From Calditrichia bacterium (GTDB lineage: Bacteria > Calditrichota > Calditrichia > JAJRVZ01): a stretch of 64,000 nucleotides of DNA. The translations under genes and the position numbers were made by a program. How positions within the stretch are numbered: the first letter of the stretch is position 1; each line of letters begins with the position of its first letter. Positions 3,820 through 17,790 of this stretch are shown here, piece after piece. Under the pieces are notes generated by a model. That model saw only the letters and a program-made list of their open reading frames with translations, searched no databases and had not been told where the DNA came from. The stretch is from assembly GCA_963796965.1 (NCBI GenBank), contig CAWCNS010000016.1, forward strand, positions 206,769-270,768. The letters run 5' to 3'.

Positions 3820-5058
3820 ATGGAATCCAGAAGAGAATCGATTGATAATACGTTGTTTTTTTACGCGGCTATGGTTTTAAATATTTTTTTAGGTTGGATC
3901 ATAGCCAGACTTAATACCGATTATCTTGAAGTACCTGTCTACGGTCAATTGGCATTTTTTACAACGATTATACTTTTTGGTCGTACATTATTTGATTTTG
4001 GGTTCTTTGAAGCCTCATCTCGACTCATGGCTATTGAAAAAGACAAGGCTGTGAGAAGTCGGCTCTTGGGTGCAAGCTTTTTATGGGCCATCTTCTTTGC
4101 TCTTCTCTCTGTCGTAATTCTCTATCTTCTCGGTGAATTTATCGATAGCATTTTTGAAGTTAAAGTAGGCTTCCTTTGTCAAAAATTTGCCTATGGTTTG
4201 GGTCTTTACGTCCTTTTGGCGTATGTTTCTCGTATCATGCGGGGTTTAGGTCATATTAAAATTCTCGCTTTACTATCAATTGCCCCCAGAATTATATATA
4301 GTCTGCTTCTAATTTTAATTATATTCGTTGCTGAATTCACATTAACTTCTACTTTAGAGATGATGTTTTGGGGGATTCTTCTTACTCTTCTTGCCGCATG
4401 GATATATCTTAAACCATCGTTGAAATACCTTGCTGAACAATCAAAGCGCATTAAAACTGAAGTGAAAGCCTATGGGCGTCATATCTATGTAAGTATAATT
4501 TGGGGAGAGCTGCTAATACATGCAGATAAGTTTCTCGTCTCATATTTCCTTGATAGTCAGTCACTGGCTTTTTATGCTTTAGCCTTCACCTTAGCAATAC
4601 CTCTATCTCTCTTTTCAACCTCATTAGCCACGAGTTTATTTAATAAGTTTGCTTCTGTGGAATTCATCAGTCCTAAAATCATTCGCGCAAATTTCATCTT
4701 CGTAATCAGCTCTGTTATAATATTTCTTTTAATTCGCAAGCATCTTATTTATTATTTGTTTTCTGAGCAATACGAACCGGCGATCGAACTCCTTTTACCC
4801 CTTGGAATTGCGTTCGGACTCTCAGGGTTGAGCAGACCCTTTACGATGTTTTTAATGGCGAATAGGCATGGAAAGATCGTCAGAAATATTTCTGTCCTTA
4901 TTCCAACAATTAAGATCGGACTAAGTATACTGATCATACCAATTTATGGTGTTTATGGTGTCGCCTGGGTAACGACGATTGTTTATGGTCTTGATTTAAT
5001 TTTATTTGTTTTTTCCTACCTTCGTATCACTAAGATTCCTTTCTCACAACTACTTTAA
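3820..5058 (+). CDS. Oligosaccharide flippase (Wzx/MOP family)
   Basis: Many hydrophobic segments, ADKFLVSYFL and YGVYGVAW motifs, polysaccharide cluster context. Confidence 0.75.
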   Translation: MESRRESIDNTLFFYAAMVLNIFLGWIIARLNTDYLEVPVYGQLAFFTTIILFGRTLFDFGFFEASSRLMAIEKDKAVRSRLLGASFLWAIFFALLSVVILYLLGEFIDSIFEVKVGFLCQKFAYGLGLYVLLAYVSRIMRGLGHIKILALLSIAPRIIYSLLLILIIFVAEFTLTSTLEMMFWGILLTLLAAWIYLKPSLKYLAEQSKRIKTEVKAYGRHIYVSIIWGELLIHADKFLVSYFLDSQSLAFYALAFTLAIPLSLFSTSLATSLFNKFASVEFISPKIIRANFIFVISSVIIFLLIRKHLIYYLFSEQYEPAIELLLPLGIAFGLSGLSRPFTMFLMANRHGKIVRNISVLIPTIKIGLSILIIPIYGVYGVAWVTTIVYGLDLILFVFSYLRITKIPFSQLL

Positions 5059-5745
5059 TCCTTCTGGTGGGGGGTGTGCAATGGTAAATACATCCACACG
5101 TTCAACCCCTGCGTTTTTCAAGCAGGTCACACAGGCTTCTACGGTGCTTCCCGTAGTAATTACATCATCGACTAATAAGACTACATTCTCAGAGATTCTG
5201 TTGGGACAATAAAAAGCATTTCTAACATTAAGATCTCTTTCTTTTTTTGACATTGTTGTTTGAGAAATCGTATTGCGTTTCCGCAGCAGTAGTTCGCTTT
5301 TAACTGGTATCTGGAATTTTGCCTTAAGGGCAAAGGAAATTTGTTCACTTTGATTGTATCCCCGCTCGCGTTCTCTTGTTTTATACAATGGAACAGGAAT
5401 GATTGCATCGTATTTATTGTTTTTCAAGTGGGGAAATCGAAGAAGGGACTCTTCTGCAAAGTAATGGGTTAAGGATAAGTAGCGATTATATTTTAACAGG
5501 TGAATTAGCATCTGGACAATCTCTTCATATTTAAACAAGATATAGATAGTGTCGAAAGACCTTTCTATCAGAGATTGATCTAAGTCCCCCTCAAAGGGAG
5601 GTATTCTCTCCCAGCATGTTTGGCATATGATCTGTCGGTCTTCGGTTAATAATTGATCACAATGATGGCAGAGTGGTGGGTATAGTACATCTGTCAGAGG
5701 CGTGAATATATATTCTTTTAACAAATAAATGATTGATGAGGTCAT
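5050..5745 (-). CDS. comF: ComF family protein (Zn finger plus phosphoribosyltransferase)
   Basis: CxxC...CxxC N-terminus, RGYNQS, LLVDDVITTGST. Confidence 0.9.
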   Translation of the reverse strand: MTSSIIYLLKEYIFTPLTDVLYPPLCHHCDQLLTEDRQIICQTCWERIPPFEGDLDQSLIERSFDTIYILFKYEEIVQMLIHLLKYNRYLSLTHYFAEESLLRFPHLKNNKYDAIIPVPLYKTRERERGYNQSEQISFALKAKFQIPVKSELLLRKRNTISQTTMSKKERDLNVRNAFYCPNRISENVVLLVDDVITTGSTVEACVTCLKNAGVERVDVFTIAHPPPEGLK

Positions 5746-5791
5746 TTAAATCTCGTTTATCATCAATCGCGCAATTATTGGACCAATTTGG

Positions 5792-5819
5792 GTAGGGACG
5801 ACCCACAGGGTTCGCCCCT
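5792..5819. repeat. GTAG-type REP-like palindrome
   Basis: GTAGGGACGACCC-ACA-GGGTTCGCCCCT imperfect hairpin in intergenic DNA. Confidence 0.55.
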
Positions 5820-5828
5820 GATAATATA

Positions 5829-7106
5829 TCACATGTTAAATATCAATGATACCCTTGGTTCAAATCTTTCCTGTGTCTCATATACATTTGGAGCGATTTG
5901 GATAAAATTCCATCGATATCGGAGCGAAACATAAAATATACTATAGGCCCTATAGCCCACTTCGGCAACAGCCTGGGAAAAAATATCCAGGGTAAATGCA
6001 TCTTTAAATGTCTGAATATTTGTTTTATCATAATAAGCCAAAAGCAAAATATTTGGTAGAGCATCAATTAAGCGTGCCTCAAGATGCATAATACCGCTGT
6101 TAGACATATCATCCTGTTGTTGATAGTTTCCCATGAGCCTGATTATATTGGCGATATTACCGGCCAATTCGCCAAAATATCCACTGGATCTAGTCATTTG
6201 AGCCAACCGGCTTTGCTTATCATAACCATCGGGTAACCCTCTTTCCAGTTCATATAAGGTGTTGAAATAGTTTGGAATAAACTGATCGCCAAGCCAACGT
6301 CTCTCAAATCTTACATCAAGACTTAACAGGCCAAGAGCATCAGGAAAACCAAAATTGATACCTGCCACCCTGCCTTCACCGTAATCAATAAATTTTGCAT
6401 AATCGAAATACAGGGTTGTTTTAAAAAAATCACCTTTAATTACCGGAAGGGCAACATCAAGACCCCATTCAGTTATATCATCATCTGTTTCAATATTATT
6501 ATCAGGATTTCTATCGCTGACTACAGTTCCACCGAATTCAAGATTACTTAGAACCGGAATCTCAGCGGTATGTAAGGGTCTGTAATAAAGACGTCCACCA
6601 ATAATTTCAATTTTAGCCAGGTTACTTGTTACCGATTCCATCCCAAATGCACCCAGATCTAAGTCAAAAGCTAAACCGAATTTCCGGTTATCATATTCTG
6701 CCTCATTGCTGTAATACCACATTTGGAATCCATGACCGAGCCTGGCTGCCATAAGAGAACCGAGGCGTATATATACCGGATCGTCTTTATGGGCATAGCG
6801 AATATATCGTATGGCACGGGCGATGGCAGAAGCATCCTCCCAACCAACTGTCCTAAATTTGAAATTCTCTTCGTTATTGAAGAGTAAATCAATCCGGAGG
6901 CCTAATCCAAACTTGCCGAAAGTGAATTCAGGGCTTATTGAGACGGTAGTATAGCTAATACCATTTATCCAAGTTACACCCAAACCACCATTAAAAAAAT
7001 TCGGGTTTTGATTTAATGGATAGGGCAAAGGCTTGTCTGACTCATCTTGGGCTAGGAGAGGAGAAATGATTAATAAAGATAAGAGAACAACTATAAGTAT
7101 CCGCAT
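5829..7106 (-). CDS. Exported protein, probable outer-membrane beta-barrel of unknown function
   Basis: Signal peptide (..SPLLAQ), amphipathic strands, C-terminal RVSLIFNM; GAGGTGG RBS before ATG at 7106. Confidence 0.65.
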   Translation of the reverse strand: MRILIVVLLSLLIISPLLAQDESDKPLPYPLNQNPNFFNGGLGVTWINGISYTTVSISPEFTFGKFGLGLRIDLLFNNEENFKFRTVGWEDASAIARAIRYIRYAHKDDPVYIRLGSLMAARLGHGFQMWYYSNEAEYDNRKFGLAFDLDLGAFGMESVTSNLAKIEIIGGRLYYRPLHTAEIPVLSNLEFGGTVVSDRNPDNNIETDDDITEWGLDVALPVIKGDFFKTTLYFDYAKFIDYGEGRVAGINFGFPDALGLLSLDVRFERRWLGDQFIPNYFNTLYELERGLPDGYDKQSRLAQMTRSSGYFGELAGNIANIIRLMGNYQQQDDMSNSGIMHLEARLIDALPNILLLAYYDKTNIQTFKDAFTLDIFSQAVAEVGYRAYSIFYVSLRYRWNFIQIAPNVYETQERFEPRVSLIFNM

Positions 7107-7169
7107 GGTCCACCTCACTATGCTGATGCGATAATTTCGATTATTTTTGCTTGATCAATTTCAATATGA

Positions 7170-7196
7170 TACTCGGCATAATCGATATAAACTTGA
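7170..7196 (-). promoter_or_regulatory. Sigma-28 promoter
   Basis: Minus strand TCAAGTTT-N11-GCCGAGTA versus consensus TAAAGTTT-N11-GCCGATAA. Confidence 0.7.
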
Positions 7197-7427
7197 TCAT
7201 TCCAATTGAAATCGGTGATATTTGCTTGATTTGATTCTATCTCAAATGCGATCAAATATGCAGAAGTGTCGAATATTCGTCAGTTTTAATGTCGAAAAAT
7301 CAGTCACATTTTTGCTAAAGTGGGTAAGGATTAGACACAAAAAAGTAAAAATAGAATTATATTTATGCCTACAAGACATTGTTAAATATAGGTTTAGGGC
7401 GCTATAAATGAAAAGGCATGGATTTTT

Positions 7428-7443
7428 TGGCACAATAAATGCG
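7428..7443 (+). promoter_or_regulatory. Sigma-54 (-24/-12) promoter upstream of fliA
   Basis: TGGCAC-AATAA-ATGCG with exact GG-N10-GC spacing, ~50 nt before the start codon. Confidence 0.65.
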
Positions 7444-7494
7444 AATATTCAAACTCGCCTATCAATTAAAACCCTTATGAGGAGGATATAGACC

Positions 7495-8253
7495 ATGTAT
7501 AACACGAACGCAGATCAAGTTTGGCAAACATACAAAGCAACGGGAAATCCAAAACTTCGCCAGGAACTTACCCTACGTTATCTCGGATTGGTCAAGTATG
7601 TTGTCAGGAAAATGATCAAGAACTATCCTCCAGCCATTGAAGAGCAAGATCTTTATCACATTGGTACCCTTGGACTGGTAGAAGCGTTGGACCGATTTAA
7701 TCTGGAATATGGCATAAAATTCGAGACCTACGCAATTCCACGTATTAAGGGTTCTATAATTGATGAATTAAGGAAACTCGATTGGATACCTCGCTCATTA
7801 CGTAATAAAACTAATATGTATAAAGAAAAAACTGTCGAATTAGAACAGAAATTCAGCGGTGCTTATACGGATGCAGAAGTCTCAAACGGACTTGGTATTA
7901 ACGAAGGTGATTTAAACACATGGAAAAGAGATATGAACAGCCTGAACATGCTATCACTTGACAGACCAATCGATGATGCCAATAGTCAAAATCTATATGA
8001 TATGATAGAAGTCGATGAAGAAACATATGCCGATAACACTATAGAAGAGGAAGAAATGAGGAAAGTATTATTAGAATCTGTAAAACAATTGCCAGAAAAA
8101 ACACGGCTGGCCATTACGTTATACTATTACGAAAAACTCACCTTCAAAGAAATCGGTAAAATTCTGAATGTATCGGAATCCCGTATTTCCCAAATTCATT
8201 CTGAGACAATGACGAAACTGAAAAAGTCAATAACAAAAATGATCTATGCTTAA
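7495..8253 (+). CDS. fliA: FliA/WhiG family RNA polymerase sigma-28 factor
   Basis: KFETYAIPRIKGSIIDELRKLDWIPRS and LTFKEIGKILNVSESRISQIH; GAGGAGG RBS. Confidence 0.93.
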   Translation: MYNTNADQVWQTYKATGNPKLRQELTLRYLGLVKYVVRKMIKNYPPAIEEQDLYHIGTLGLVEALDRFNLEYGIKFETYAIPRIKGSIIDELRKLDWIPRSLRNKTNMYKEKTVELEQKFSGAYTDAEVSNGLGINEGDLNTWKRDMNSLNMLSLDRPIDDANSQNLYDMIEVDEETYADNTIEEEEMRKVLLESVKQLPEKTRLAITLYYYEKLTFKEIGKILNVSESRISQIHSETMTKLKKSITKMIYA

Positions 8254-8260
8254 TATAAAT

Positions 8261-8315
8261 TATAACCGTTAAAATCCAATTTTCATATATTGAGTATTGG
8301 ATTTTAACGGTTATA
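8261..8315. terminator. Perfect 20-bp inverted repeat after fliA (terminator/stability hairpin)
   Basis: TATAACCGTTAAAATCCAAT-N15-ATTGGATTTTAACGGTTATA. Confidence 0.6.
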
Positions 8316-8579
8316 CTCAGATTTATTCCTTCCTATCAAGCCTCGGCTTAAAATTATTTGCACTTAAATACTTAAATATCTTATATTAATACCACTTAAA
8401 TTACTTTTTTCATACCACGAAGACACCAAAACACAAGACTTTATTGTTTTCAAAATACAACTTATTAAAATCAATATTTCAAACTGATAGCAATAATAAA
8501 TTATTAAGTCGGTGGTTTTAGGGTGCGATTTAATGTATTGGTGAGAAACCTTTCAATCAAATGAAGAATAATTAATATT

Positions 8580-9728
8580 ATGGCAGCCGAAAAAAATCAA
8601 AAAATTTTAATTGTTGAGGATAACCAGGAAAATATAGATCTTCTGGTTTATTTTTTGCGGCCTCAGGGCTACGAACTGGTTACCGCCAAAGACGGTTTAA
8701 GTGCTTTGGAAAGAGTTGACGAGGGGCATCCGGATATTATTTTACTGGATATTATGCTTCCCAAGATGGATGGTTACGAGGTCTGCGAAAGATTAAAAAA
8801 CAGACCAGATACAAAATTTATCCCAATTATCATGTTGACTGCCTTGAAGGAATTGCAGGATAAGGTGAAAGCCTTAGAGGTAGGCGCTGATGATTTTCTT
8901 TCCAAACCCTTCGAAAATGTAGAATTACTTGCCCGGGTAAAATCTTTACTCCGTCTCAAACAATATCATGACGAGTTGCAATATAAAAATAAAGAATTAG
9001 CAGGAAAAAATGCTTCACTTTTGCGTATGGATAAGTTCAAAGAGGATCTTATCAACCTGATCGTCCATGACATGAAGAATCCTTTATTCGTTATCCAGGG
9101 TAATCTCCAAATGATGTCAATGTCCATGCAAAACCTCTCTGCTGAATTTCTAAAAAAGTATACCCAGCGTATTGAGCGAAGTAGCCAACAATTGCTAAGA
9201 ATGGTTGTAAATCTCCTGGATATATCCAGGATTGAAGAAGGAACTATTAAACTTAAAGAAGACAATGCCAGTCTCAATGATATTATAAAAGAAATCGCTT
9301 TACGTATCAGTGATTATCCTGAAAATGAACAAAAACAAATTGTAATCGATCTTGATTCTGATTTGCCGGAAATTAAAGCAGATAAGTCAATTATTGAGAG
9401 AGTTTTGGAGAATATTATTAATTTTTCTGTTACAAATGTTGATGATGAAGGGAAAATCCTTATCTCCACTTCCACGCGCGGATCTGAACATGTACAATTT
9501 ATAGCCCACGATAGCGGTACACAAATTCCTAAAAACTATCACGATAAAATTTTTGAAAAATTTTCCCAGGCAGAAATTAAAGATAGTGGATCCCGTGTTG
9601 ACCGGGCCCTTGGGTTAACATTCTGTAAACTTGCAGTAGAGGCTCATAAGGGAAACATGTGGTTGGATCTCGAGAATAAGATCGGTAATAAATTCATAAT
9701 TGAACTTCCTTTATCCATAAATAGCTAA
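8580..9728 (+). CDS. REC-HisKA-HATPase hybrid protein with degenerate ATP-binding boxes
   Basis: REC (IVEDN, LLDIMLP, SKPF) and H-box IVHDMKNPL intact; N, G1 and G2 boxes altered. Confidence 0.85.
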   Translation: MAAEKNQKILIVEDNQENIDLLVYFLRPQGYELVTAKDGLSALERVDEGHPDIILLDIMLPKMDGYEVCERLKNRPDTKFIPIIMLTALKELQDKVKALEVGADDFLSKPFENVELLARVKSLLRLKQYHDELQYKNKELAGKNASLLRMDKFKEDLINLIVHDMKNPLFVIQGNLQMMSMSMQNLSAEFLKKYTQRIERSSQQLLRMVVNLLDISRIEEGTIKLKEDNASLNDIIKEIALRISDYPENEQKQIVIDLDSDLPEIKADKSIIERVLENIINFSVTNVDDEGKILISTSTRGSEHVQFIAHDSGTQIPKNYHDKIFEKFSQAEIKDSGSRVDRALGLTFCKLAVEAHKGNMWLDLENKIGNKFIIELPLSINS

Positions 9729-9762
9729 ATCAATATATTACGCACTCCTTGAAATCTTCCAG

Positions 9763-9779
9763 ACGCGATAAAATCGCGT
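9763..9779. repeat. Degenerate REP-like palindrome
   Basis: ACGCGAT-AAA-ATCGCGT. Confidence 0.35.
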
Positions 9780-10098
9780 GCTTATAATTATTTAATCTTC
9801 ACTAATACGCCTGATGTCGTTATCATTTCAGATTAGAATAATTTTCCTCAGCTACTCTTCATAATCATGATTTGTATTTGATAAGATCAAAAATGCTCGG
9901 TCAGTATTATAGTGAGACACAAATTTGAGTATTTGTACTATGGGGTGAATTAGAACTTCGATCGATCTGGTATTTCACAGATTTTTCGCACTATCTAAGT
10001 CGCTACTATTTGAAAGAATTATTGTTTTTGAAATTTTATACCTGGGAAAGAAAAGGAACAAATTTAATAATATTCGGTAAAAACATTTAATAGAATGT

Positions 10099-10125
10099 TA
10101 AAGTTTAATAAGCCAGCACCGATTA
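10099..10125 (+). promoter_or_regulatory. Sigma-28 promoter
   Basis: TAAAGTTT-N11-ACCGATTA. Confidence 0.75.
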
Positions 10126-10163
10126 TAAAAATGTAATCTTTGAATTTTAGTTGTATAAAAGAA

Positions 10164-10325
10164 ATGAAAAAAGATAAAATGATTAAAAATGAAACCCCAG
10201 ATTCCTTCGAGGATCAGAAATTAGATTTAATCCGCTTAAGGATAAAAAATGGATATTATAAAAATCATCATATTTTGGAAAATGTTGTAAAGGAAATACT
10301 AAACAAAGAGATAAAACGAAAATAG
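10164..10325 (+). CDS. Small FlgM-like anti-sigma-28 factor (C-terminal domain only)
   Basis: KLDLIRLRIKNGYY..ILENVVKEIL resembles the FlgM C-terminal K-V-x-x-I-K-x-x-I-x-x-G-x-Y motif; directly behind a sigma-28 promoter, 2 kb from fliA. Confidence 0.6.
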   Translation: MKKDKMIKNETPDSFEDQKLDLIRLRIKNGYYKNHHILENVVKEILNKEIKRK

Positions 10326-10534
10326 ATTTTAAATTTTACCGATTGATTATCTATCTGCAAAAACATTCTTAACCGCAGTAAAACTTAATATAACCCACTT
10401 TTTACTTGACTTTTAGACTACCATTTGGGAAATTTACGCATTCCACAATTGAATTGCTTATTTATTCAAAGTTATCTAAATCATCTGAAATTAATTACAA
10501 AAACAATTCAAATTCACTTATAGGAGGATTCTTA

Positions 10535-10807
10535 ATGAGCAAGCAAGAACTAGTAAACTTTATCGCTGATCAGGCAGGTTTGTCAAAAAAAGATGCAGAG
10601 GCAGCCTTAGCAGGATTTGTTGATGGTGTAAAATCATCTCTAAAAAAAGGTGACAGTGTTACTTTGGTTGGTTTTGGCACATTTTCCGTTAGTCACCGTG
10701 GTGCCCGCACAGGAAGAAATCCGCAGACCGGTGCAACGATTAATATACCTGCCCGTAAAGCGCCAGTATTTAAGGCTGGTAAAGCCCTTAAAGAAGCTGT
10801 AAACTAA
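10535..10807 (+). CDS. hup: DNA-binding protein HU
   Basis: [34 protein letters not shown]; GGAGG RBS before ATG at 10535. Confidence 0.95.
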
Positions 10808-10809
10808 AT

Positions 10810-10836
10810 AAAAGGGCGGTATAACCGCCCTTTTTT
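10810..10836 (+). terminator. Rho-independent terminator
   Basis: AAAAGGGCGGT-ATA-ACCGCCCTTTTTT. Confidence 0.85.
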
Positions 10837-10860
10837 ATTTGACTTAACCCTACAAACCCC

Positions 10861-12399
10861 ATGCACAGACAACCCACCAGGAAGGTATCGGTTAGTAAGT
10901 ATCTGTTAATTATTTTAATAACCTTTATTGTTTGTGTCTTTGGTTGTACTTCCACATCTAAAGTTGCTCCTCATTCAGTTAATATATCGAATTTAGATGC
11001 GCTTTCAGCAAAAATCACTTCTCTTATATCAGATCCTCGTCTTTTCAATGCTCAGGTCGGCGTATATATTGAATCTGTTGACTATGGTGAAACTATTTAT
11101 TCTCAAAATGAGCATAAATTATTTATATCTGCTTCAAATATGAAGATTTTTACAACGGCAACGGCATTACTCCGTTTCGGACCGGATTTTAGATATAAAA
11201 CAGCGGTGTTTACTAATAGCACGATTAAAGGCGGTGTCTTGGAAGGCGATCTTATCGTTAGGGGGAAGGGAGATCCGACAATTGCACCAAGGTTTAGCGG
11301 TGGTGACCCGCTAACATTTTTTCGTTCCTGGGCAGATAGTTTAATTGATAAAGGAATTACTGTTATTAATGGTGATATCGTTGGGGATGAATCCTATTTT
11401 CAGACGGATCGGCTTGGATATGGTTGGCAATGGGATGATGAACCCTTTTGGTATTCTGCCCAAATTAGTGCATTATCTTTTAATGACAATTGTATTGATG
11501 TAACAGTGACGTCTAATAAAAATTCAGGGGAACCCCCACTGGTAACTTTATCACCACCAACAAAATATTTCACTATTGAGAACCAGGCTTTAACGGTTGA
11601 CCCGGATTCTACCCGCACATTATTTTTAACCCGTCCCCGGATGCAAAATGTACTACTTGTCCAGAACCATATTCCCCGGAATAAACCAAAATATTTAGAG
11701 TCAATTTCGGTTGATGATCCAGCAAGATACTTTGTCTTTGTGCTCAAGGAAGTGCTTGAGGAAAAGGGCATAGAAGTAAGGGGGACTATAAAAACTAACA
11801 GACAAAAAGGGTATTATCAATATGATCAATTGTCGCGTCTATTTACCCATCAGTCACCACCTATGACCGAGATAATAAAGGTTGTGAATAAACGAAGCCA
11901 AAATCTCTATGCTGAACAGCTTTTAATTACACTCGCCGCTGAATACGGTACAGAGGCCACAGCAGATGAGGGGGTTCAGGTGGTAAACAGTACTCTTTCT
12001 GCTATGGGTATTTCAACCGGTGAATTTCTTATGCATGATGGGTCAGGGCTTTCACGCGTTAATCTTATTTCTCCATACAGTGTTGGATTGCTTCTGCGTT
12101 ATATGTCTAAAAGTGACTATTTCCCATATTTTCATGATTCACTCCCCATCGGTGGGGTAGATGGTTCTTTGCGTCGCAGAATGGTTGAAACCCCGGCACA
12201 GGGTCGGGTAAATGCCAAGACCGGCTATGTTGGACATGTACGCAATCTTTCAGGGTATGCCACGTCGCTTGATGAAGAAACCTTTATATTCTCAATTTTA
12301 GTAAATAACTATCTGATTCCGACCTCAGCTATAAATCTTCTCCAGGATCGAATTTGTATTGTACTTGCAAATTTTAGCCGTTCCCAATCCGTTCGCTAA
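10861..12399 (+). CDS. dacB: D-Ala-D-Ala carboxypeptidase/endopeptidase (PBP4, peptidase S13), probable lipoprotein
   Basis: SNMK (SxxK), SQN (SxN), KTG, DGSGLSR. Confidence 0.92.
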   Translation: MHRQPTRKVSVSKYLLIILITFIVCVFGCTSTSKVAPHSVNISNLDALSAKITSLISDPRLFNAQVGVYIESVDYGETIYSQNEHKLFISASNMKIFTTATALLRFGPDFRYKTAVFTNSTIKGGVLEGDLIVRGKGDPTIAPRFSGGDPLTFFRSWADSLIDKGITVINGDIVGDESYFQTDRLGYGWQWDDEPFWYSAQISALSFNDNCIDVTVTSNKNSGEPPLVTLSPPTKYFTIENQALTVDPDSTRTLFLTRPRMQNVLLVQNHIPRNKPKYLESISVDDPARYFVFVLKEVLEEKGIEVRGTIKTNRQKGYYQYDQLSRLFTHQSPPMTEIIKVVNKRSQNLYAEQLLITLAAEYGTEATADEGVQVVNSTLSAMGISTGEFLMHDGSGLSRVNLISPYSVGLLLRYMSKSDYFPYFHDSLPIGGVDGSLRRRMVETPAQGRVNAKTGYVGHVRNLSGYATSLDEETFIFSILVNNYLIPTSAINLLQDRICIVLANFSRSQSVR

Positions 12400-12575
12400 T
12401 TTTCTTAAAACTTCTGATATTGCTATCAAACATTTTCATTTTTTATAATCTTTATGTATTATTGTTTCATTAGCTGGTCAAAACCTCTTCATAAAGTGGT
12501 TTGCAGATAAACATTTCAGGCAACATATAAAGAGAATATCCGCTTATTATATTTTCCGTAAAAGGGGAGGCCAAA

Positions 12576-12938
12576 TTGGATCTTAAATCTGATTTCAGAG
12601 GTGACTTTTTAATCATAGAAGTAAATAAGAGAAGAGCTACACTTGATCTCGCACCTGAAATGAGAGAGAAAATCATTTCAGAGATTAATCACGGAAATGG
12701 AAAAATTATTGTTAATCTTAGCTATGTTGAATTTATTGACAGTTCTTTCTTAGGGTCACTTGTTGCTGGAGTAAAATTGATTAAAGAAAAAGGTGGTAAA
12801 ATTATCATTGTCGGTCTTCATCCCCATGTTCGAGTTACTTTCGCACTTACGCATATGGATAAAATTTTTCCGGTTTATATCACTGTTGAAGAGGCAATGC
12901 GTAATGAGAGTGAAAATTCCGGGTCATTACCGGGCTAG
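12576..12938 (+). CDS. STAS-domain anti-anti-sigma factor
   Basis: VEFIDSSFLG motif, 120 aa. Confidence 0.85.
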   Translation: MDLKSDFRGDFLIIEVNKRRATLDLAPEMREKIISEINHGNGKIIVNLSYVEFIDSSFLGSLVAGVKLIKEKGGKIIIVGLHPHVRVTFALTHMDKIFPVYITVEEAMRNESENSGSLPG

Positions 12939-13000
12939 GACATTACATCATAACTTATCGTTAATAAAGCGCATACTTGCTATCAGAATTAATGGTTTCC

Positions 13001-14277: not shown

Positions 14278-15391
14278 TTAATATCTTTTCGTAATAATCA
14301 ATATACTTAGGAACAATTATTTCAGGTGAGAATTTGGAGGTGGCAATTTCCATACCCTGCTTACCCATCTCCTTTGCCAATTTATTGTCTGAGAAAATGA
14401 CATCGATGGCTTCGGCAAAGCCTTCAATGTCACCAATATTCACAGTAAAACCTGTCTTGCCATCAAGGTTAACTTCTGGCAGACCGCCGGCATTTGTGGA
14501 GACACATGGAGTACCACAGGCCAGCGCTTCAAGTGCTACAAGTCCAAAACTTTCCGATTCACTCGGTATTAGGGCAATGTCAGCGATAGATAATAATTCT
14601 GAGATATTTTCCTGTTTACCAAGAAAAATAACTTTATCACATAAATTTTCATTTCTACATTGCTCTTCTGTTTTATATCGGTCAGGACCATCGCCAACCA
14701 TCAACATTTTAACTCTATGCTTTTTACTAACTTTTTTAATTATTGGCACGATATCAGTAACCCGTTTGAGTGAGCGAAAATTTGAAATATGAATTAAAAT
14801 CTTTTCATCATCGGAGGCAAATCGTTGACGGATCTCTTTATTCGTCTTAATTGTGCCGAACTCGAATGGAACAAAATTTGGAATAACTTCAATTTCTTTT
14901 TTTGGATTTAAAACTTCAATTGTTTTATTCTTCAAAAATTCAGAAACTGCTGTAACACCTGAACTTTGTTCGATACTGAATTTTGTAATTTTAAAAAATG
15001 AGGGATCCCCGCCTAGTAAAGTTATATCAGTTCCATGAAGAGTTGTTACAAATCTGATGTTTTTATCTTCTAAAATTTGCCTGGCCAGATATGCACTCGT
15101 CGCATGGGGGATAGCATAATGAACATGCATGATATCTAATTTTTGAAATTCAAATACTTCGGCCATCTTAGAAGCCAGGGCGAGGCTATAGGGTGGATAT
15201 TCAAATAAAGGATAATGGATAACTTCAACTTCATGAAAAAATATTTTTGAGGCAAAATTTGTCAGACGATAGGGAAGGGCATAAGAAACAAAATGAACCT
15301 CGTTGCCTCTCTCGGATAATCTTTTCCCAAGTTCAGTCGCAACTACACCACTTCCGCCATAAGTCGGATAACAGGTTATTCCAATTCTCAT
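14270..15391 (-). CDS. bshA: N-acetyl-alpha-D-glucosaminyl L-malate synthase
   Basis: CYPTYGGSGVVATELG, HVHYAIPHA, TTLHGTDIT, HISNFR. Confidence 0.92.
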   Translation of the reverse strand: MRIGITCYPTYGGSGVVATELGKRLSERGNEVHFVSYALPYRLTNFASKIFFHEVEVIHYPLFEYPPYSLALASKMAEVFEFQKLDIMHVHYAIPHATSAYLARQILEDKNIRFVTTLHGTDITLLGGDPSFFKITKFSIEQSSGVTAVSEFLKNKTIEVLNPKKEIEVIPNFVPFEFGTIKTNKEIRQRFASDDEKILIHISNFRSLKRVTDIVPIIKKVSKKHRVKMLMVGDGPDRYKTEEQCRNENLCDKVIFLGKQENISELLSIADIALIPSESESFGLVALEALACGTPCVSTNAGGLPEVNLDGKTGFTVNIGDIEGFAEAIDVIFSDNKLAKEMGKQGMEIATSKFSPEIIVPKYIDYYEKILSD

Positions 15392-16908
15392 GACGAGGTG
15401 GTCATTTCAATTGAGAATTGTTTGACACAGTTACGCCCAGCATGCTTGGCAGCATACAATGCTGTATCTGCCTTATAGATAAGATCTGTTGAGTCTTCTG
15501 CATCGATAGGCAAAGATGCGGTTCCAACACTGACTGAAATCCTGTTCAGAGGTTGTACATCTTCATCAGGGAAGATGGCATCAGCCACATGAGCACGGAT
15601 ACGCTCAGCGAGTATGATGACACCATCGCGTCCGACACTGGGCAGGATGACGGCAAACTCTTCCCCACCATATCGGGCGACGATATCATTTTCACGTACC
15701 GTATCTTTTAAAATATTAGCTAATTGTTTTAAGACTAAATCACCAGCCTGATGCCCAAGGGTATCATTGTAATTTTTAAAATGATCGACATCGAGAATAA
15801 TTAGAGAAACACCTTGTTTATTTCTGGTATGTCTTAGGATCTCTTCTTTAAGTCTCATCTCAAAATAGCGAAAATTATGTAAATCTGTCATACCATCCGT
15901 ATAGGAAAGCTGAATGACTTCGTCATACAATGAAGCATTTGATAATGCTGTCGAAACAATATTATTGATTGTTAATAGAATTTCAAGTTCATTCTTTTGA
16001 TAGGGTTTTTCATTTACCCGCGACCCTAAACATATAAGCGCATCTTCCTGATCCCGGACTGTTGTAATGGGAGAAATCAATTCAATGTTGATTTCCGCCA
16101 AAGCAGAAGTACCCGAGGACTTCAGGACATATTTAGGTAATTTTGTAATAAATTGTGGCGATTGGTTCTTATGCAAATATGAGATGAGTTCGTCACTTTT
16201 TTCAATGGTTAAATCCTCTACATCAGCTTTATAAAGTCCCTTTGAGTTCAGAACAGAGAGACGCTGTTCATTCTTTTTTGCAGGGTATAAAAATACAGCG
16301 CTTTTACAGCTAAATTTTCCGATGAGCGAAAGCAAAGTTGAGTTTATCAGACGATCTACATCAAGAATAGCATGCAATTCGAGAGAAACATCAAATATAT
16401 TTCTGAGGTCATAGATTTTCTTTCTTAATTCTTTATTTTTATCGACAAGATTCTGATTGAGATCATAAATCTGCTTGTTTGCATTTTCAAGCTCGTGGGA
16501 TTCTTGGCGCAGGTTGTCACTTAGTTGTTTGAATCGTAGCGCCGAGTTGATACGTGCAATGAGTTCCTCAAAACTAAACGGTTTAATGATGTAATCATCT
16601 GCACCAACCTCAAGCCCCTGGATGACATCTTTAATCTCACTTTTTGCTGTCAACATCAAGATGGGAATGTATTCATCTAGCCGGCCATTTAGTCGGATTT
16701 CTTTTGCGACTTCAATTCCCGAAATACCTGGCAACATTACATCAAGTAGAATAACATCCGGTTTGGACTGATAATACTTTTTAAGCGCAATTTCACCGCT
16801 CATTGCCTCTTCAATCTCGAAGCCCTGTTCACGCAAAAACTTGCTTAATACCTGTAGCATTTCCTGATGATCATCGACAATTAGGACCCGGAAAGACGTC
16901 TTTTCCAA
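15388..16908 (-). CDS. Response-regulator diguanylate cyclase (REC-coiled coil-GAF-like-GGDEF)
   Basis: N-terminal REC; RxxD I-site (REND) and RYGGEEF active site. Confidence 0.9.
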   Translation of the reverse strand: MEKTSFRVLIVDDHQEMLQVLSKFLREQGFEIEEAMSGEIALKKYYQSKPDVILLDVMLPGISGIEVAKEIRLNGRLDEYIPILMLTAKSEIKDVIQGLEVGADDYIIKPFSFEELIARINSALRFKQLSDNLRQESHELENANKQIYDLNQNLVDKNKELRKKIYDLRNIFDVSLELHAILDVDRLINSTLLSLIGKFSCKSAVFLYPAKKNEQRLSVLNSKGLYKADVEDLTIEKSDELISYLHKNQSPQFITKLPKYVLKSSGTSALAEINIELISPITTVRDQEDALICLGSRVNEKPYQKNELEILLTINNIVSTALSNASLYDEVIQLSYTDGMTDLHNFRYFEMRLKEEILRHTRNKQGVSLIILDVDHFKNYNDTLGHQAGDLVLKQLANILKDTVRENDIVARYGGEEFAVILPSVGRDGVIILAERIRAHVADAIFPDEDVQPLNRISVSVGTASLPIDAEDSTDLIYKADTALYAAKHAGRNCVKQFSIEMTTSS

Positions 16909-17774: not shown

Positions 17775-17790
17775 TGGCACCGTAATTGCA
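17775..17790 (+). promoter_or_regulatory. Sigma-54 promoter (consensus match)
   Basis: TGGCAC-CGTAA-TTGCA. Confidence 0.85.

Follow-up and report, generated by a model that had tools for sequence, protein, structure and literature searches.

A predicted sigma-54, sigma-28, and mini-FlgM module in Calditrichota, apparently kept from a flagellar system whose structural genes were lost

The window analyzed in this study is a 64,000-nucleotide stretch of contig CAWCNS010000016.1 from a sediment bacterium of the phylum Calditrichota, whose assembly (hereafter G000) has a completeness of 91%. The sigma-28 gene fliA, a hybrid kinase gene, a small open reading frame (ORF) resembling flgM, and hup follow one another there on the plus strand, and a predicted outer-membrane barrel gene and comF lie divergently (Table 1). 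The first-pass annotation of this DNA had proposed that these genes form a regulatory cascade working without a flagellum, possibly repurposed for an envelope, DNA uptake, or developmental program. Comparing the locus with its counterparts in related genomes (families labeled f1 to f8), we propose that the module is what remains of a lost flagellar system and that it still operates as a small switch.

Table 1. Predicted features of the module and its flanks (window positions)
Feature	Position	Strand	Basis or remark
ComF/GntX-family phosphoribosyltransferase, conserved divergent neighbor	5050..5745	-	TIGR00201 below cut-off; synteny
Predicted outer-membrane beta-barrel, 425-amino-acid secreted protein, neighbor rather than core part	5829..7106	-	in 21/36 loci
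Weak divergent sigma-28-like site, lineage-limited	7170..7196	-	score 9.4
Tandem pair of imperfect 17-bp palindromes (TGT-N11-ACA type), putative enhancer site of a sigma-54 activator	7267..7306	+	conserved columns, 36 upstream regions
Sigma-54 -24/-12 promoter of fliA	7428..7442	+	conserved in 36/36 loci; rpoN in genome
fliA, sigma-28 (FliA), orthologue of system-A flagellar FliA	7495..8253	+	TIGR02479, trees, dN/dS
Hairpin with 20-bp stem between fliA and kinase gene, possible terminator or processing site	8261..8317	.	-29.7 kcal/mol
REC-HisKA-HATPase hybrid with dead ATP boxes, predicted pseudokinase	8580..9728	+	Pfam; 53 orthologues aligned
Sigma-28 promoter TAAAGTTT-N11-ACCGATTA	10099..10125	+	highest score in G000; 31/32 loci
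Mini-FlgM, 53 amino acids, only the two C-terminal sigma-binding helices	10164..10325 (ATG 10164)	+	profile alignment
hup (HU), ancestral flgM neighbor	10535..10807	+	Pfam, synteny

The fliA product scores 234.5 bits against TIGR02479 (cut-off, 189.6) and carries the Pfam sigma regions 2, 3, and 4, placing it in the FliA/WhiG family. The sigma-54 site that had been noticed before fliA was confirmed, as it stands shortly upstream of the gene in all 36 regions compared (two distant and two truncated loci being excluded from this count). The alignment of these regions also revealed the tandem palindromes, absent from the first-pass annotation, whose consensus is TGTCGAAAATTTCGACA; the fliA box pair obtains the top score among the 60 sigma-54-like promoters of G000. 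This genome encodes 47 matches to the Sigma54_activat domain, and its rpoN gene lies ~3 kb to the left of the window, directly followed by what are presumably hslV- and hslU-like genes (L023:12333-15751). As in the flagellar RpoN-FliA-FlgM checkpoint, fliA is therefore preceded by a predicted sigma-54 promoter with an enhancer in a genome that has rpoN. Moreover, in comparison with two nonflagellated relatives, fliA shows a nonsynonymous substitution rate (dN) of 0.08 to 0.10, the synonymous rate (dS) being saturated or 3.15, which equals the dN of hup (0.09); the kinase gene reaches 0.15 to 0.16 and the mini-FlgM ORF 0.22 to 0.25, with dS of at least 1.1 or saturated. These values point to strong purifying selection on fliA among nonflagellated genera.

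The kinase gene stands directly behind fliA in 35/36 loci (L024 to L059), and the degenerate ATP boxes that had been reported for its product recur in all 53 orthologues. The N-box Asn and the DxGxG of the G1 box that mark an active hybrid kinase are missing: the Asn is replaced by Phe or Tyr in 53/53 orthologues, and the second G1 Gly does not appear among the four commonest residues at its position, which cover 48 of the 53. The protein has kept the phosphoacceptors of an active kinase, with His163 in 52/53 and the receiver Asp57 in 53/53, together with an H-D-x-x-N motif, a motif associated with phosphatase activity. Autokinase activity is thus unlikely given the N-box and G1 changes, and the retained motif then suggests a role as a phosphatase, phosphate sink, or scaffold.

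Between the kinase gene and the small ORF, the predicted sigma-28 promoter of the first-pass annotation proved to be the best site genome-wide, and a TAAAG-N15-CCGA site occupies this place in 31/32 related loci, so that by its motif the ORF would have the sigma-28-dependent promoter expected of flgM. The FlgM-like nature of the ORF is likewise upheld, its product being apparently FlgM-derived. A 28-member alignment of the mini-FlgM proteins matches the C-terminal part of the ~100-amino-acid FlgM of flagellated f6 to f8 genomes (hhalign probability, 97%; E 1e-10), which argues for homology of the C-terminal sigma-binding helices; the match to the FlgM of the other flagellar system of the phylum, called B below, is weaker (72%). 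The former FlgM, of system A, matches PF04316 and weakly 1RP3_B (E 0.047), and PF04316 is found at E<=0.5 in 3 of the 28 mini-FlgM members (best, 2.6e-4); searched against the PDB, the mini-FlgM profile returned noise only. Within families f1 to f5, this profile finds a strong match in 45/49 genomes. What distinguishes mini-FlgM is the loss of ~35 N-terminal residues (20 to 41 residues before the core versus 60 to 64 in flagellar FlgM), including the D-K-x-E-L-S motif of the N-terminal half, which none of the 28 mini proteins carries. This region of FlgM is needed for export. In Pseudomonas aeruginosa, FlgM(61-107), which comprises two helices, was crystallized with sigma-28 (PMC12784957), and because that complex was solved with this fragment, mini-FlgM may be the counterpart of the complex-forming part. 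Further downstream, the first strong terminator (10810-10834) comes after hup, so that read-through from the sigma-28 promoter into hup is possible. A 174-amino-acid protein with two FlgM domains is encoded elsewhere in the phylum, within a system-B flagellin cluster (L071:1096-1617, in G009).

The genome-wide search for flagellar export genes that had been advised gave zero profile matches to flhA, fliF, rod, and flagellin genes across the 91%-complete G000. The export apparatus and the flagellin that accompany the RpoN-FliA-FlgM checkpoint in flagellated bacteria are thus both missing, no flagellar system turned up elsewhere in this genome, and the promoters and gene order of the module are conserved in relatives. 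Since G000 lacks an export gate, relief of FlgM without export is implied for this module. The remark that the 64 kb hold no flagellar or chemotaxis gene extends to the whole genome for its flagellar part, but a chemosensory cluster is present on contig C4 (G000:C4:880888-888710), with CheW (two matches), a gene resembling those of methyl-accepting chemotaxis proteins, and an 1848-amino-acid CheA-like protein. At the family level, flhA occurs in 1/10 genomes and the window-type fliA in 10/10; flhA is absent from the five high-quality genomes of the family (5/5), and the single-contig relative G082 has neither flhA nor flagellin and retains FliA and FlgM. Over the phylum, flagellin is absent from 34/86 genomes, among which FliA persists in 30 (29 over the cut-off plus one split gene) and a FlgM-like gene in 31. 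Several nonflagellated f7 genomes (G059, contigs C8 and C5; G057; G058; G053) encode large proteins, of up to 1817 amino acids, with the cytoplasmic part of FlhA/FHIPEP only.

The phylum has two flagellar systems, A and B, and the module is best interpreted as a remnant of system A, kept after the loss of its structural genes. In a 55-row tree of FliA, a quick tree in which long branches were flagged, the clade of the window FliA (support, 97) groups with the FliA encoded beside flhA in f6 to f8, i.e., system A (support, 97), and 10 copies that are 26 to 34% identical form system B (support, 99). The system-A cluster runs flhA, two genes that we take in part to be flhF and flhG, a small membrane gene, fliA, an HDOD gene, a second kinase-like gene, a TPR gene, and the orthologue of the window kinase; in several genomes, hup comes next after its flgM, the same as in the window. 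Because the sigma-28 motif is common at system-A flagellin genes (9/11 loci) and rare at those of system B (1/18, one truncated locus dropped), we tie it to FliA-A. The enhancer pair behaves in a similar way. In intact system A, it is found at the fliW promoter and at those of genes that we take to be motB and flgB, 6/11 sigma-54-like sites beating all shuffles. The pair scores above all 30 shuffles at 9/10 fliA-operon promoters of f7 and f8 genomes without system A, at 7/10 fliW-operon promoters, and at 0/7 system-B sigma-54 sites. In f8, the intact cluster and the remnant share a long flanking gene, and the remnant promoter resembles the motB promoter; the structural genes were therefore probably deleted in place. 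Behind system-A fliA, a second GAF-HisKA kinase with altered ATP boxes (L098:6618-8114 and L120:2192-3610) and an HDOD protein also survive flagellar loss in f8.

The loss appears to have happened repeatedly. In a 31-row FliA tree, unrooted and excluding system B and outgroups, grouping of the system-A genomes as one clade, a hypothesis posed after the earlier tree had been seen, was rejected (approximately unbiased test, p 9e-7), and the starred branches require flagellar state to have changed at least three times, changes that we read as losses because of the remnant synteny. FlgM would have eroded in parallel, the D-K-x-E-L-S motif being gone wherever system A is gone: with a pattern derived from the flagellated FlgM set, it is present in 10/10 flagellated proteins, 0/17 f7 and f8 proteins, and 0/28 f1 to f5 proteins, a looser form being kept in 3 of the 17. 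In f7 and f8 genomes, with and without flagella, a protein of 70 to 90 amino acids consisting of sigma-70 region 4 only has its gene, preceded by a sigma-54 promoter, between fliW and flgM (L135 to L150, e.g., L140:2216-2479; L349) and could act as a FlgM decoy. Neither this protein nor fliW was found in G000, so that such a decoy is ruled out as the means of FlgM relief in the host.

As for the output of sigma-28, the genome scan with a promoter matrix that had been suggested for defining a regulon did not yield an enriched one in G000, and it led to one further conserved target. Clustering of the genes behind intergenic matches singled out an IHF/HU-family gene (G000:C5:1080270-1080584, minus strand; L293) present in 84/86 genomes. 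Among full-length upstream regions (three short ones were dropped), 18/27, two of these being the discovery cases, carry a site scoring at least 12, mostly at -163 to -221, versus 0/27 reversed controls, which places a sigma-28-like promoter ~170 nt upstream in most f2 to f5 genomes. A 73-amino-acid Cys-rich gene was present in only one of five relatives, and there it had retained its site. Alternatively, sigma-28 might serve a large regulon whose promoters are too degenerate for the matrix, such as signaling and cyclic di-GMP (c-di-GMP) genes that vary between lineages. Intergenic strict sites do occur, in single genomes, before PAS hybrid kinases, a PilZ protein, an RsbW-like kinase, and a REC-GGDEF-EAL gene, and G033, the only genome with a clear excess, has 15 strict matches versus 1 control, about half of them inside genes. 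However, the 99 strict matches over 20 genomes (71 controls) include 19 flgM promoters, leaving 80 for all other genes, and the candidates followed up failed: a 120-amino-acid family without Pfam match, in 53/86 genomes and with three paralogues in G000 (C2:68785, C7:525369, and C8:264862), has the site in 4/29 cases only, an LPP20/FlgT-like operon has it in 0/4 relatives, and the G000 orthologues of PilZ, RsbW, and other candidates were rejected. We consider such a hidden regulon unlikely.

The divergent genes had suggested an envelope or DNA-uptake program, driven through a second near-consensus sigma-28 promoter before the barrel gene. This second site proved weaker than first described: its score lies between the 95th and 99th percentiles of 400 random upstream regions, and a site scoring at least 10 precedes the barrel gene in 4 of the 21 relatives carrying it. 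The gene order proposed at the outset holds for the kinase after fliA and for comF, which is the divergent neighbor in 33/36 loci, whether the barrel gene is present or not; the barrel gene itself is missing from 12 loci. Its predicted structure (predicted local distance difference test score, 73; ~22 strands) matches generic barrels only and suggests a porin-like fold. An envelope or DNA-uptake output would agree with this persistence of comF and with the site that precedes the barrel gene by 65 to 98 nt in the window and in these four relatives; it is opposed by the lack of a site scoring at least 10 in 17/21 barrel loci and in every one of the 12 loci where comF lies directly upstream, and by G000 itself, in which pilM is represented only by a weak partial match (430-amino-acid frame, E 4e-7) and no clear type IV pilin signal peptide was found. 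Such an output thus has a low probability.

A function of the module for system B, with decaying leftovers in the genomes without flagella, is similarly improbable. With flhA in 30/49 genomes of f1 to f5 and with system-B flgM promoters that are similar to the motif, most having a spacer of 12 nt, cross talk is possible. Nevertheless, FliA-A persists beside a system B that has its own FliA and full-length FlgM, the flagellin promoters of that system mostly misfit the matrix, and selection on fliA appears strong among nonflagellated genera, 9/10 genomes of the host family lacking flagella and all having the module. Finally, that flagellar genes were simply missed in a 91%-complete assembly is very improbable, as four separate flagellar families are absent from G000, flhA is lacking in every high-quality genome of the family, and single-contig G082 shows the same pattern.

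Altogether, these findings argue for a core of system A, with conserved predicted enhancer boxes, sigma-54 promoter, fliA, pseudokinase, sigma-28 promoter, and mini-FlgM, that was kept as a small self-limiting switch: fliA would be switched on through a sigma-54 activator, after which sigma-28 would induce its own shortened inhibitor along with a few other genes, most plausibly that of an IHF/HU-family DNA-bending protein. We give this reading a probability of roughly 60%. The sigma-54, sigma-28, and FlgM wiring without a flagellum, as first proposed, is supported here by conserved cis elements and purifying selection. In the model, a sigma-54 activator would bind the double enhancer box and, together with sigma-54, drive transcription of fliA and, probably, of the kinase gene. 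Sigma-28 would then transcribe mini-flgM, possibly on into hup, as well as the IHF-like gene, and mini-FlgM would bind sigma region 4 through its two helices. Among the least certain steps, inhibition may be relieved by proteolytic turnover or by sigma-28 synthesis outrunning mini-FlgM, resulting in a transient pulse; the pseudokinase may act as a phosphate sink or phosphatase on the activator pathway upstream; and the output could be a change of nucleoid or physiological state, with possible feedback of the IHF-like protein on sigma-54 promoters.

Several observations weigh against this switch. Taken alone, the mini-FlgM of the window matches nothing in Pfam or the PDB, and no sigma-54 activator gene was found inside the system-A clusters of three genomes. 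Intergenic sigma-28 sites show no excess in G000 (243 versus 242 reversed), and therefore the output could consist mostly of weak promoters or of nearly nothing; the matrix, trained on a single set of orthologous promoters, may also be too narrow. The IHF/HU-gene site is present in 2/6 f1 genomes (G000 included) and in 0/5 f6 to f8 genomes, one reversed control in that test scoring 21.7, and RNA contigs from one metatranscriptome (0.05 share) and one unlabeled run cover almost none of the module. A broader and more tentative idea, which we hold to be doubtful, is that the phylum repeatedly deleted the flagellum around an intact activator, sigma-54, sigma-28, and FlgM circuit, eroding the export half of FlgM each time, and that this circuit is an export-free timer that brings about a developmental or resting state by inducing nucleoid proteins (IHF/HU), gated by the dead kinase and running parallel to a second, flagellar sigma-28/FlgM pair that is insulated from it within the same cell.

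Some local features belong to the surroundings of the module. The hairpin between fliA and the kinase gene is a single copy seen only in G000, where the gap spans 326 nt versus 47 to 178 nt in relatives. A REC-GGDEF diguanylate cyclase is encoded 5 kb from the module (15388-16908, minus strand), a similar REC gene occupying a like position in several family relatives; at 4500-13000, Rfam gave no match near the gathering score for the idea of a c-di-GMP riboswitch. A perfect sigma-54 consensus (17775-17789, plus strand), followed by a small GC-rich hairpin ~290 nt before the gene of a pyridoxal phosphate enzyme, could drive a short RNA.

Legionella already provides an example of FliA and FlgM in the absence of flagella. 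The nonflagellated L. oakridgensis retains FliA/FlgM (Tlapak et al. 2017, as described in review PMC5655016), and its FlgM seems degraded (PMC5655016). Both cases share the retention of fliA and of a sigma-28-dependent flgM without a basal body, repeated flagellar losses with regulators kept, and relief other than by export; unlike it, the Calditrichota case is phylum-wide, keeps the sigma-54 promoter and enhancer, has a FlgM of ~55 amino acids and a pseudokinase between the genes, and coexists in many relatives with a second flagellar FliA/FlgM system. In Helicobacter pylori as well, FlgM is relieved without secretion (PMC3930126). The module resembles the RpoN, FliA, and FlgM hierarchy of Vibrio and Pseudomonas (PMC3930126) in that its flgM would depend on sigma-28 and its fliA on sigma-54, the latter as in V. 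cholerae, and in that the proteins and promoter motifs are homologous, but it has neither an export apparatus nor a flagellin target. Its TGT-N11-ACA enhancer belongs to one of the activator motif classes of Desulfovibrio and differs from the GTCA-N6-TGAC repeat of FlrA-like activators (PMC4641369).

Two other flagellum-independent uses of sigma-28 can be compared with the module. In Chlamydia trachomatis, one sigma-28 target, hctB, encodes a histone-like protein. The sigma-28 of this species works without a flagellum on a two-gene regulon, just as the regulon predicted here is tiny and includes a nucleoid protein, but it is transcribed by sigma-66 and controlled by Euo, the accessible text describing no FlgM feedback (PMC12282069). 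WhiG, of the WhiG-RsiG-(c-di-GMP) system of Actinomycetota, is likewise a repurposed sigma-28 with a similar promoter consensus (PMC12871210) and is the best solved-structure match of the window sigma (E 7e-54); here, however, the partner is FlgM-derived and not RsiG. The WhiG2-RsiG pair is defined by Lys57/Gly61/Arg62 in the sigma and by E(X)3S(X)2R(X)3Q(X)3D in the anti-sigma (PMC12871210). Gly61 is Arg in the module sigma, in all 15 orphan-clade rows with LVKYVVRKM, and the RsiG motif occurs in 0/28 mini-FlgM proteins, so that this c-di-GMP switch was rejected. In the accessible part of its text, the C. abyssi genome paper mentions flagellar genes, and the word "sigma" does not occur (PMC5317091); our search, with most subscription papers and supplements lying outside it, found no publication joining Calditrichota and FlgM or dealing with this module. 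What our study adds is the system-A origin, the retained enhancer, the repeated losses accompanied by FlgM erosion, and an IHF/HU-family gene as a candidate target.

Throughout the phylum and following several independent losses of the flagellum, the flagellar sigma-28 checkpoint would thus still have a job worth keeping. With full-length FlgM in some lineages, eroded forms in others, and a 53-amino-acid core at the extreme, nature has provided a deletion series that makes two questions testable, namely, how FlgM may be relieved without export and how two sigma-28/FlgM pairs may be insulated from each other in one cell.

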